A stretch of 64,000 nt of DNA, taken from Escherichia coli. Lineage in GTDB: Bacteria; Pseudomonadota; Gammaproteobacteria; Enterobacterales; Enterobacteriaceae. The stretch lies in assembly GCF_041886205.1 (NCBI RefSeq), contig NZ_CP169029.1. One strand, written 5' to 3'. Within the stretch, counting starts at the first letter, position 1; each line of letters begins with the position of its first letter. Below the pieces are notes generated by a model. The model saw only the letters and a list, made by a program, of their open reading frames with translations, was not told the DNA's origin and ran no database searches. Positions 2,908-50,140 of the stretch are shown piece by piece. Both the position numbers and the translations under genes were made by a program.

Positions 2908-3942
2908 ATGGCTTACTCTGTTCAAAAGTCGCGCCTGGCAAAGGTTGCGGGTGTTTCGCTTATTTTATTACTCGCTGCCTGTAGTTCTGACTCACGCTAT
3001 AAGCGTCAGGTCAGTGGTGATGAAGCCTACCTGGAAGCGGCACCGCTTGCGGAGCTTCATGCCCCGGCTGGAATGATTTTGCCGGTGACCTCCGGTGATT
3101 ATGCAATCCCGGTGACCAACGGTAGTGGTGCTGTCGGTAAGGCGCTGGACATTCGTCCACCAGCCCAGCCGCTGGCACTGGTTTCTGGCGCGCGTACCCA
3201 GTTCACGGGCGATACCGCTTCATTGCTGGTGGAAAATGGTCGTGGCAATACTCTGTGGCCGCAGGTGGTTAGCGTGCTGCAGGCGAAAAACTACACCATC
3301 ACCCAACGTGATGATGCTGGTCAGACACTGACAACCGATTGGGTACAATGGAACCGTCTGGACGAAGACGAGCAGTATCGTGGTCGTTATCAAATCTCTG
3401 TTAAGCCGCAGGGTTATCAGCAGGCGGTTACGGTTAAACTGCTGAACCTGGAACAGGCGGGCAAACCGGTTGCAGACGCGGCTTCCATGCAGCGTTACAG
3501 CACGGAGATGATGAACGTTATTTCCGCCGGTCTGGATAAATCTGCCACTGACGCCGCGAACGCTGCGCAAAATCGTGCCTCCACCACTATGGACGTACAA
3601 AGTGCAGCTGATGACACCGGTTTACCAATGCTGGTCGTACGCGGGCCGTTCAATGTGGTTTGGCAACGTCTGCCAGCGGCGCTGGAAAAAGTGGGCATGA
3701 AAGTGACCGACAGCACCCGTTCGCAGGGCAACATGGCCGTAACTTATAAGCCGCTGTCTGACAGCGACTGGCAGGAACTGGGCGCGAGCGATCCAGGCCT
3801 GGCATCCGGTGACTATAAACTGCAGGTTGGCGATTTAGATAACCGCAGTAGCCTACAGTTCATCGATCCGAAAGGTCATACTCTGACTCAGAGTCAGAAC
3901 GACGCGCTGGTAGCTGTCTTCCAGGCTGCGTTTAGCAAGTAA
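2908..3942 (+). CDS. bamC: Outer membrane protein assembly factor BamC (lipoprotein NlpB)
   Basis: [27 protein letters not shown] lipoprotein signal peptide with LAAC lipobox; recognised BamC; ATG at 2908 preceded by GGGAGA. Confidence 0.92.
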
Positions 3943-3948
3943 AAATAC

Positions 3949-3977
3949 AGGGCTGGAATCATCCGGCCCTTTTTTCT
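3949..3977 (+). terminator. Rho-independent terminator downstream of bamC
   Basis: agggctgg-aatcat-ccggccct stem-loop followed by TTTTTTCT. Confidence 0.7.
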
Positions 3978-3985
3978 GATATGAT

Positions 3986-4001
3986 ACGCAAACGTGTGCG
4001 T
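3986..4001. promoter_or_regulatory. PurR operator (PUR box) upstream of purC
   Basis: ACGCAAACGTGTGCGT, a near-palindromic match to the PurR box consensus (ACGCAAACGTTTGCGT-like), about 150 bp upstream of purC. Confidence 0.7.
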
Positions 4002-4048
4002 CGGCAGGAAAACGCGATTTTAGCGGTAATTCGCACGAAATTTGTTTG

Positions 4049-4100
4049 TCGGACGTCGTTCGGATAAAGCGTTCACGCCGCATCCGACAAAACATCCGGC
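4049..4100. repeat. REP (repetitive extragenic palindromic) element
   Basis: gtcggacgtcgttcggataaagcgttcacgccgcatccgacaa resembles the E. coli REP consensus (GGATAAGGCGTTCACGCCGCATCCGGC). Confidence 0.6.
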
Positions 4101-4154
4101 ACACCAGACAGCAAAAGATTTTAAAACGTTAATTCACACCCAGGAGTGATAAAG

Positions 4155-4868
4155 ATGCAAAAGCAAGCTGAGTTGTATCGTGGTAAAGCGAAAACCGTAT
4201 ACAGCACGGAAAACCCGGACCTGTTGGTGCTCGAATTCCGCAATGATACGTCAGCAGGGGATGGCGCGCGCATTGAGCAGTTTGATCGCAAAGGTATGGT
4301 GAACAACAAGTTCAACTACTTCATTATGAGCAAACTGGCTGAAGCGGGTATCCCGACTCAAATGGAGCGTCTGCTCTCCGATACCGAATGTCTGGTGAAA
4401 AAGCTGGATATGGTGCCGGTTGAGTGTGTCGTGCGTAACCGTGCTGCTGGCTCTCTGGTGAAACGTCTTGGAATCGAAGAAGGTATTGAGCTGAACCCGC
4501 CGCTGTTCGATCTGTTCCTGAAAAACGACGCCATGCACGATCCGATGGTCAACGAATCTTACTGCGAAACCTTTGGCTGGGTGAGCAAAGAGAACCTGGC
4601 GCGTATGAAAGAGCTGACCTACAAAGCGAACGACGTGCTGAAAAAACTGTTCGATGATGCTGGTCTGATTCTGGTCGACTTCAAGCTGGAATTTGGTCTG
4701 TACAAAGGCGAAGTGGTACTGGGTGATGAGTTCTCCCCGGACGGTAGCCGCCTGTGGGACAAAGAAACGCTGGAGAAAATGGACAAAGACCGTTTCCGCC
4801 AGAGCCTCGGTGGCCTGATCGAGGCCTATGAAGCCGTCGCCCGCCGCCTGGGTGTACAGCTGGACTGA
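4155..4868 (+). CDS. purC: Phosphoribosylaminoimidazole-succinocarboxamide synthase (SAICAR synthetase)
   Basis: 237 aa from ATG 4155 ([17 protein letters not shown]...), CAGGAG RBS; recognised PurC. Confidence 0.93.
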
Positions 4869-5035: not shown

Positions 5036-5899
5036 ATGCGTTGGCAAGGGCGACGTGAAAGTGACAATGTTGAAGACAGGCGCAATAGCTCCGGTGGTCC
5101 GTCAATGGGCGGTCCCGGTTTCCGTCTGCCGAGCGGTAAAGGCGGGCTGATTTTACTGATAGTCGTGCTGGTTGCAGGCTACTATGGCGTTGATTTAACC
5201 GGGTTGATGACCGGGCAGCCGGTTTCTCAACAGCAATCAACGCGGTCAATTAGCCCAAATGAAGACGAAGCCGCAAAATTCACCTCGGTGATTCTGGCAA
5301 CCACGGAAGACACCTGGGGACAACAGTTCGAAAAGATGGGTAAGACCTATCAGCAACCGAAGCTGGTCATGTACCGTGGAATGACGCGCACCGGATGCGG
5401 GGCGGGCCAGTCCATTATGGGGCCGTTCTATTGCCCGGCGGATGGCACGGTTTATATCGATCTCTCCTTCTATGATGACATGAAAGACAAACTTGGCGCG
5501 GATGGCGATTTTGCCCAGGGGTACGTTATCGCCCATGAGGTCGGTCATCATGTGCAGAAACTGTTAGGCATCGAGCCGAAAGTTCGTCAACTGCAACAAA
5601 ACGCGACGCAGGCGGAAGTGAACCGCTTATCTGTGCGTATGGAACTCCAGGCCGACTGTTTTGCCGGTGTCTGGGGGCATAGTATGCAGCAGCAAGGCGT
5701 TCTGGAAACCGGCGATCTGGAAGAGGCGCTGAACGCGGCGCAGGCCATCGGCGATGACCGTTTACAACAGCAAAGTCAGGGGCGAGTAGTACCAGACAGT
5801 TTCACTCATGGCACTTCTCAGCAACGCTACAGCTGGTTTAAACGTGGTTTCGACAGCGGCGATCCGGCACAATGCAATACTTTTGGTAAAAGCATTTAA
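5036..5899 (+). CDS. ypfJ: Putative zinc metallopeptidase YpfJ
   Basis: 287 aa; predicted N-terminal membrane anchor; HEVGHH (HExxH) zinc-binding motif; recognised YpfJ. Confidence 0.88.
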
Positions 5900-8712: not shown

Positions 8713-8797
8713 CCAGGCCTGATAAGACGCGTGATGCGTCGTATCAGGCATCGTTCACCATTGCCGGATGCGGCGTTAACGCCTTATCCGGCCTACG
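8713..8797. repeat. BIME: two REP elements between ypfH and ypfN
   Basis: gcctgataagacgcgtgatgcgtcgtatcaggc and gccggatgcggcgttaacgccttatccggcctac, both matching the REP consensus. Confidence 0.8.
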
Positions 8798-33447: not shown

Positions 33448-33731
<284 letters not shown>

Positions 33732-40952: not shown

Positions 40953-41855
<903 letters not shown>

Positions 41856-49282: not shown

Positions 49283-50140
49283 ATGTTGTACCTGACGAAA
49301 ATACGCAATGCGGAAAGTGAATTTACCGGGAACGAGCAAAAAATTGCTGACTTTCTGCGGGCCAACGTGAGTGAGCTGAAATCCGTCTCTTCGCGCAAGA
49401 TGGCGAAACAGCTCGGCATCAGTCAGTCGAGCATTGTGAAATTTGCCCAGAAGCTCGGCGCGCAAGGATTTACTGAATTGCGTATGGCGTTAATTGGCGA
49501 ATACAGTGCCAGCCGGGAGAAAACGAATGCCACGGCGCTGCACCTGCACAGTTCGATTACCAGTGATGATTCGCTGGAAGTGATTGCCCGCAAACTGAAT
49601 CGCGAAAAAGAGCTGGCGCTGGAGCAAACCTGTGCGTTGTTCGACTACGCGCGGCTGCAAAAAATCATTGAGGTCATCAGTAAAGCACCGTTTATCCAGA
49701 TAACTGGCCTGGGCGGGTCGGCGCTGGTGGGGCGCGATCTGTCGTTCAAACTGATGAAAATTGGCTATCGCGTGGCCTGCGAAGCCGACACGCACGTACA
49801 AGCCATCGTTTCCCAGGCGTTGAAAAAAGGCGATGTACAAATCGCTATCTCTTACAGCGGCAGTAAAAAAGAGATTGTCTTGTGCGCAGAAGCGGCACGA
49901 AAGCAGGGGGCAACGGTGATTGCCATTACTTCTCTGGCTGACTCTCCGCTGCGGCGGCTGGCGCATTTCACGCTCGATACCGTTTCCGGTGAAACCGAAT
50001 GGCGTAGCTCGTCGATGTCTACCCGCACGGCGCAAAATTCTGTTACCGATTTACTGTTTGTTGGTCTTGTGCAACTCAATGATGTGGAGTCATTGAAAAT
50101 GATTCAGCGCAGCAGTGAGCTAACACAACGCCTGAAATGA
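49283..50140 (+). CDS. murR: RpiR-family transcriptional repressor MurR
   Basis: 285 aa; N-terminal HTH plus SIS domain; divergent from murQ. Confidence 0.92.

Follow-up and report, generated by a model that had tools for sequence, protein, structure and literature searches.

The window analysed here, a stretch of 64,000 nucleotides of Escherichia coli DNA, carries dapA (2013–2891), bamC, purC and ypfJ (5036–5899) in this order, each matching its own NCBIfam equivalog, and purC starts at 4155, not at 4156. The spacer between bamC and purC comprises the intrinsic terminator of bamC, an extended −10 element, a PurR operator (PUR box) lying over the transcription start site, and a 163-nt leader with a REP-type insertion (Table 1). 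A preliminary description, made from the letters of the DNA alone, had read the 16-mer ACGCAAACGTGTGCGT as a near-perfect palindromic PUR box placed between the bamC terminator and purC, and had considered it consistent with repression of purC by PurR. The exact sequence is indeed present on the plus strand at 3986–4001 and the placement is confirmed; 14 of the 16 positions are self-complementary, A6/G11 being the sole pair that is not. The extended −10, the start site within the box and the leader are additions to that description.

Table 1. Features of the bamC–purC region, in window coordinates
Feature	Position	Strand	Basis
bamC	2908–3942	+	NCBIfam NF008674 BamC equivalog, 567 bits; stop 3940–3942; annotated bamC in E. 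coli genomes
bamC intrinsic terminator	3949–3976	+	Terminator scan; 9-bp stem AGGGCTGGA/TCCGGCCCT followed by a T-run
purC promoter, extended −10	3977–3985	+	TG at 3977–3978, one base, TATGAT at 3980–3985; −15 to −7 from the start site
PUR box (PurR operator), ACGCAAACGTGTGCGT	3986–4001	.	Motif, identity with the K-12 ChIP-chip site, invariance in orthologues
purC transcription start site	3992	+	Start site of Kim 2012 mapped via purC coordinates; box position 7
purC 5' leader, 163 nt	3992–4154	+	Published start site to start codon
Leader insertion, about 102 bp, Escherichia-specific	~4022–4123	+	Single 102-bp gap in pairwise alignment with Citrobacter
Shine-Dalgarno sequence AGGAG of purC	4142–4146	+	GGAG kept in all aligned orthologues among the matches listed
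purC (237 aa, SAICAR synthetase)	4155–4868	+	TIGR00081 equivalog, 290 bits

The box agrees with the PurR consensus ACGCAAACGTTTGCGT at 15 of 16 positions (one mismatch), has the central CG at its positions 8–9, and is the only match to the consensus in the window at three or fewer mismatches, a criterion that is itself unselective, a match being found in 41 of 100 shuffles. A log-odds matrix was built from the 27 other PurR ChIP-chip motifs in Table 1 of Cho 2011 (PMC3159470), with purC excluded. In this weight-matrix scan, one of two checks proposed in the preliminary description, the box lies above threshold, scoring 18.88 bits on the minus strand, where it reads ACGCACACGTTTGCGT, against 16.53 bits on the plus strand, and is the top match in the window, the runner-up reaching 14.1 bits. 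The verified training sites range from 11.2 to 25.4 bits, and the purC box outscores 10 of the 27, being placed in the lower half of the known sites because its positions 6/11 carry a C/G deviation, which is absent from the strongest PurR sites. Under an independent-base model its score corresponds to p = 2.6e-7 per position, i.e., 0.03 matches expected in a window and about 2.4 in an E. coli genome, with the scan threshold in Cho 2011 (PMC3159470) being a FIMO cut-off of 1e-4.

A palindrome arising by chance in an intergenic spacer, without regulatory role, has to be weighed against these figures: apart from the frequency of consensus matches in shuffled sequence, 18 of 200 dinucleotide-preserving shuffles of the window (9%) reach the same matrix score somewhere, and for a 64-kb search the motif score by itself is suggestive, not decisive. 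The case is made by three things taken together: the position, in a 212-bp spacer directly 5' of a purine gene, the conservation and the published occupancy. A site identical to the box is occupied by PurR in vivo; the box overlaps the purC transcription start site and is invariant in 15 named genera among the matches listed while its flanks drift, and the two next-best matches in the window lie inside open reading frames at a frequency that chance would produce. Conservation and published occupancy effectively refute an accidental origin, to which we give very little probability. The element shows several features of a PUR box, namely a 16-bp imperfect dyad with a central CpG, a score within the verified range, a location in the control region of a purine gene and a phylogenetic footprint. 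The two weaker matrix matches, both on the minus strand and within long open reading frames (49800–49815, 14.1 bits; 41180–41195, 12.9 bits), were rejected as candidate operators, 0.6 and 1.2 such matches per window being expected by chance.

The second proposed check, a comparison with the characterised purC operator, returned the same sequence at the same coordinates as the PurR site of strain K-12. The box is identical in K-12 MG1655, at 2,597,772–2,597,787 of NC_000913.3; since purC coordinates differ by 1,978 between the two versions of the K-12 genome, it falls at 2,595,794–2,595,809 in version 2, and these coordinates and its sequence (ACGCACACGTTTGCGT on the other strand) coincide exactly with the purC entry of Table 1 in Cho 2011. 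The 16-mer, its genomic position and the flanking genes are thus all the same in K-12 and in the window, and the two strains differ by three SNPs in the surrounding 271 bp, the nearest at 4003, 2 bp 3' of the box. Of 5,426 complete E. coli genomes, 5,425 match a 301-bp segment around the box, with 95–100% identity and always between bamC and purC; about 20 of the 5,425 show only partial coverage of the bamC–purC spacer. The element is therefore the already characterised purC operator of E. coli, and the operator itself does not differ from that of K-12. In Cho 2011 (PMC3159470), purC shows a ChIP-chip log2 enrichment of 2.08 with adenine, the top value of the table, and of 1.52 without, in an enriched region of 2.2 kb, and the genes of the IMP pathway are repressed by PurR. 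The original work on the purC operator is that of Tiedeman 1990, He 1990 and Meng 1990, as cited in Cho 2011 (PMC3159470), and purC appears in the title of Meng et al. 1990 as one of the genes regulated by purR. For the strain analysed here, occupancy and repression of purC are read across from this published work on the identical K-12 sequence and would be expected to hold.

An operator of, or shared with, another LacI-family regulator recognising an AAnCGnTT core (RbsR, Cra, GalR) deserves consideration, as a central CG and similar cores occur in all LacI-family operators. RbsR has moreover been reported to affect purHD. When aligned by hand to the Cra, GalR and RbsR consensus sequences, the box matches at about half of the positions. 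Against such an assignment stand its agreement with the PurR consensus at all positions but one and the fact that the regulated gene is a purine gene. The ChIP experiment, furthermore, used tagged PurR and gave an adenine-responsive signal (Cho 2011, PMC3159470). Another regulator in place of, or alongside, PurR is accordingly considered quite improbable, if slightly less so than a chance palindrome.

The purC transcription start site is given at NC_000913.2 2,595,803 on the minus strand, with a 5'UTR of 163 nt, in the genome-wide start-site table of Kim et al. 2012 (PMC3415461, supplementary file 2), where the sequence upstream of the start ends ...CTGATATGATACGCAAA. Relative to this start the operator covers −6 to +10. 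The extended −10 (TGaTATGAT) is wedged between the bamC terminator and the box, which it abuts; in an approximate sigma-70 model TATGAT scores 6.4 bits as a −10, to which the TG adds a bonus. A scan for −35/−10 pairs found none for this promoter and no convincing −35 was identified, so that the promoter assignment rests on the published start site and the extended −10; the empty scan fits a promoter that is independent of a −35.

Because the box spans −6 to +10 and abuts the −10, repression by PurR most likely works through occlusion of RNA polymerase. Hypoxanthine or guanine would bind PurR, whose dimer would then occupy the box and block either polymerase binding or open-complex formation, and purC transcription would be lowered when purines are plentiful; we infer both the steric occlusion and the corepressor dependence from the geometry and from established PurR biochemistry. 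One point sits less easily with this mechanism: the general PurR site in Cho 2011 (PMC3159470) lies between the −35 and the −10, whereas the purC box lies 3' of the extended −10 and covers the start. Otherwise the purF, purT, purHD, purMN, purL and purEK operators resemble that of purC in being 16-bp dyads with a central CpG over the core promoter, at which initiation is repressed in response to hypoxanthine or guanine (in part established knowledge). The roadblocks at purB (He & Zalkin 1992) and purR (Rolfes & Zalkin 1990) share the repressor and the motif with purC, but their operators are situated well within the transcript, where they stop the elongating polymerase; the purC box of E. coli lies over the start site. 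With the start within the box, and not well 5' of it as in a purB-type roadblock, the box in the window should act on initiation, not elongation.

The palindrome could instead act as RNA, folding in the purC leader or in read-through bamC mRNA and serving as a stability element or as a second terminator; this is suggested by its ability to form a 5-bp hairpin of −5 kcal/mol and by its position directly 3' of a terminator. This hairpin is however no more stable than those of shuffled sequences (z = 0.24; 118 of 200 shuffles fold as well), and with the start site at box position 7 only half of the palindrome enters the purC mRNA. The leader is not unusually structured, shuffled sequence folding about as well (z = 0.14), and Rfam gave no match to it in the window or in 15 other loci. 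Among the matches listed, conservation is moreover of the exact sequence, without compensatory changes. An RNA element is on these grounds the least credible of the alternatives, its probability being close to negligible. With very high confidence, the box is the operator at which PurR, a member of the LacI family, lowers transcription of E. coli purC, most likely by occlusion at the promoter. The repression of purC by PurR that the preliminary description had proposed is supported by the motif score, the published ChIP-chip site, the overlap with the start site and conservation; a textbook regulatory site is confirmed in the window, and the call made from sequence was correct.

The conservation of the box was analysed by scanning species-representative genomes with a degenerate purC codon pattern, which gave at least 120 loci, mostly from Enterobacterales (Salmonella, Vibrionales and Pasteurellales are not in the sample). 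Synteny of bamC and purC is general among the matches listed. The exact 16-mer is found 5' of purC in at least 33 loci from 15 named Enterobacteriaceae genera (among the matches listed: Citrobacter, Enterobacter, Escherichia, Klebsiella, Kluyvera, Kosakonia, Leclercia, Pluralibacter, Phytobacter, Pseudescherichia, Pseudocitrobacter, Siccibacter, Superficieibacter, Trabulsiella and one Cedecea), while neighbouring bases diverge on both sides. The asymmetric 16-mer is reversed in 2 of the 33 loci listed (L017 and L092). The hairpin and T-run of the bamC terminator are found at the same place in all 33 orthologous Enterobacteriaceae spacers among the matches listed, with compensatory changes. In six aligned E. 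coli strains, SNPs occur at 4003, 4004, 4007, 4012 and beyond, and 3974–4002 is invariant, also in the one of them that carries an IS200C copy directly 5' of it.

Other families carry different, likewise strong boxes upstream of purC. Among the matches listed, these are AGGTAAACGATTGCGT in Erwiniaceae (22–25 bits), ACGGTATCGTTTGCGT in Serratia (18 bits), ACGCAAnCGTTTGGCT in Edwardsiella and Hafnia, and AAGTAATCGTTTGCGT in Providencia, the last at −240 to −330 from the ATG.

Several further observations concern the box and its immediate surroundings. The asymmetric pair A6/G11 (window positions 3991 and 3996) is retained in 33 of 33 loci among the matches listed and a perfect palindrome occurs in none, which might stem from selection for an affinity below the maximum or from a constraint that the initially transcribed sequence imposes. 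In E. coli ETEC1701 (locus L005, 1939–2397), an IS200C copy is inserted into the T-tract of the bamC terminator, at the point corresponding to window 3973/3974; it sits a few bases 5' of the purC extended −10 and leaves TTCTGATATGAT and the operator intact. The invariant box also appears to be paired with two predicted promoter layouts, as judged with approximate sigma-70 frequencies in a comparison of window 3977–4010 with L010, L013, L017, L032, L033, L059, L075, L095 and others (box ±30 nt). In the first layout (Escherichia, Citrobacter, Klebsiella, Kluyvera, Pluralibacter), a −10 (TATGAT or TATAGT) abuts the box on its 5' side. In the second (Enterobacter, Leclercia, Kosakonia, Phytobacter, Pseudescherichia), a good −10 (CATAAT, TAAAAT, TAGAAT or GATAAT) lies 2–5 nt 3' of the box and a −35-like GTGACG or GTGCCA overlaps its start, which would place the box in the spacer. 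Start-site support exists for the first layout only, in E. coli.

The distance from box to ATG is 168–169 nt in Escherichia versus 65–76 nt in most other Enterobacteriaceae among the matches listed. With respect to the ATG, the Escherichia-specific leader insertion shifts the operator from about −67 to −169. A REP-like palindrome (arms 4060–4072 and 4075–4087) lies within the insertion, and the two copies of an imperfect 13-bp direct repeat (4024–4036 and 4127–4139) form its borders. Elsewhere in the window, Rfam matches to naRNA4 (RF02564, a REP/BIME-derived nucleoid-associated RNA) occur at 8716–8793 (−), 33501–33582 (+) and 33601–33682 (+), with 74–86 bits; the REP-like element of the purC leader falls below the threshold of this model.

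The placement of the box relative to purC differs among Enterobacterales. Placement was counted in 99 complete loci among the matches listed, taking boxes of at least 15 bits up to 400 nt upstream or up to 120 nt downstream of purC: a box was found only upstream in 59, only downstream in 29, on both sides in none and on neither side in 11. Ten of these last 11 are from outside the Enterobacterales (Orbaceae, Alteromonadales, Burkholderiales and Succinivibrionaceae) and the remaining one is from an insect-symbiont Pantoea, again among the matches listed. All 88 loci with a box are from Enterobacterales, and in these it is thus either upstream or downstream, never both. In the species without a near upstream box, nothing of at least 15 bits was found further upstream within the loci, except for a few distant matches unrelated to purC. 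Shimwellia seems to be intermediate, scoring 13.4 bits on the upstream side and 19.1 bits on the downstream side. The window itself, of the upstream type, has no PUR box 3' of the purC stop codon (4866–4868) in the matrix scan.

In a scan of whole loci, the downstream box scores 17–24.6 bits among the matches listed, has the consensus rCGCAAwCGwTTaCgT and lies between the purC stop codon and a terminator, the hairpins 3' of it being lineage-specific. In 25 of the 29 listed loci it starts exactly 2 nt after the stop codon, and this spacer varies in sequence while remaining constant in length; in the four loci of Rahnella and Rouxiella it starts 22–27 nt after the stop. The downstream type includes, among the matches listed, Yersinia, Rahnella, Photorhabdus, Xenorhabdus, Proteus, Pectobacterium, Brenneria, Budvicia, Cedecea neteri and Mangrovibacter (loci L006, L015, L018–L020, L027, L028, L031, L036, L048, L055, L062, L066, L068, L071, L073, L074, L079, L081, L084, L090, L099, L100, L108, L110, L114, L116, L118 and L123).

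That the downstream box might be the operator of the next gene was considered and rejected, as both the identity of that gene and its distance vary: it is ypfJ at 100 to 750 nt in several genera, an ABC transporter gene in Photorhabdus, a gene for a small membrane protein in Pectobacterium and a convergent gene in Proteus. With such variation, the downstream box goes with purC and not with its neighbour. The strict either/or pattern speaks for a function common to both placements, and suggests that the downstream box is a PurR operator at the 3' end of purC, possibly a roadblock.

As to the history of the two placements, a rough neighbour-joining tree of PurC and BamC, for which several bamC extractions were wrong, requires about 10 changes between upstream and downstream, and the placement seems to have switched several times, six or more being the number put forward here. 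Among the matches listed, the downstream state occurs in basal Enterobacteriaceae, Pectobacteriaceae, Budviciaceae, part of the Yersiniaceae and part of the Morganellaceae, with a downstream box of uniform sequence as against upstream boxes that vary from family to family. The pattern suggests that a 3' operator was ancestral and that promoter operators replaced it repeatedly, the direction of change being inferred. That the promoter-proximal operator in the window is a lineage-specific replacement of an older one located 2 nt after the purC stop codon is given even odds.

A roadblock, as at purB, is the simplest mechanism that fits what is known of PurR; at the downstream box it would stall RNA polymerase before the stop codon is transcribed. 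With EcoRI Q111 as the block, the active site of the stalled polymerase reportedly lies about 14 bp behind the protein; at such a distance, a polymerase halted by a box that starts 2 nt after the stop would not transcribe the stop codon. The product would be a purC mRNA without stop codon or terminator, as with LacI at O3. There, at the 3' end of lacI, the transcript is truncated and the protein is SsrA-tagged and degraded, according to Abo et al. 2000 as relayed in Semsey 2013 (PMC3711431). The likeness, a LacI-family repressor at the 3' end of a gene, concerns the downstream box of other genera only and not the box in the window, and an O3-like mechanism at purC is put forward by analogy, as a hypothesis. 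The downstream box is likewise closer than the window box to the roadblock class of purB and purR.

No description of a PUR box or PurR operator at the 3' end of purC was found in the literature. A comparative study from 2008 reported the link between PurR and purC as poorly conserved, with an SOS of 0.18 versus 0.37–0.71 for purE, purM, purL, purH, purF and purT, which would be the outcome expected from a search restricted to upstream regions. If the downstream box is functional and controls purC, PurR would regulate this gene from its 3' end, giving a natural and recurrent case of a metabolic gene repressed in this way and explaining why purC drops out of the PurR regulon in upstream-only reconstructions for many Enterobacterales.

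A last observation concerns the 5' side of purC in other genera. In seven loci (L044, L027, L048, L079, L114, L019 and L123), a short GC-rich hairpin recognised by eye lies about 10–35 nt 5' of the purC start codon; this hairpin, which precedes the Shine-Dalgarno sequence, is absent in E. coli and has no Rfam match, and its arms vary yet remain complementary (e.g., GGCCGC..GCGGTC, GGCCAC..GTGGTC and ACCGC..GCGGT).
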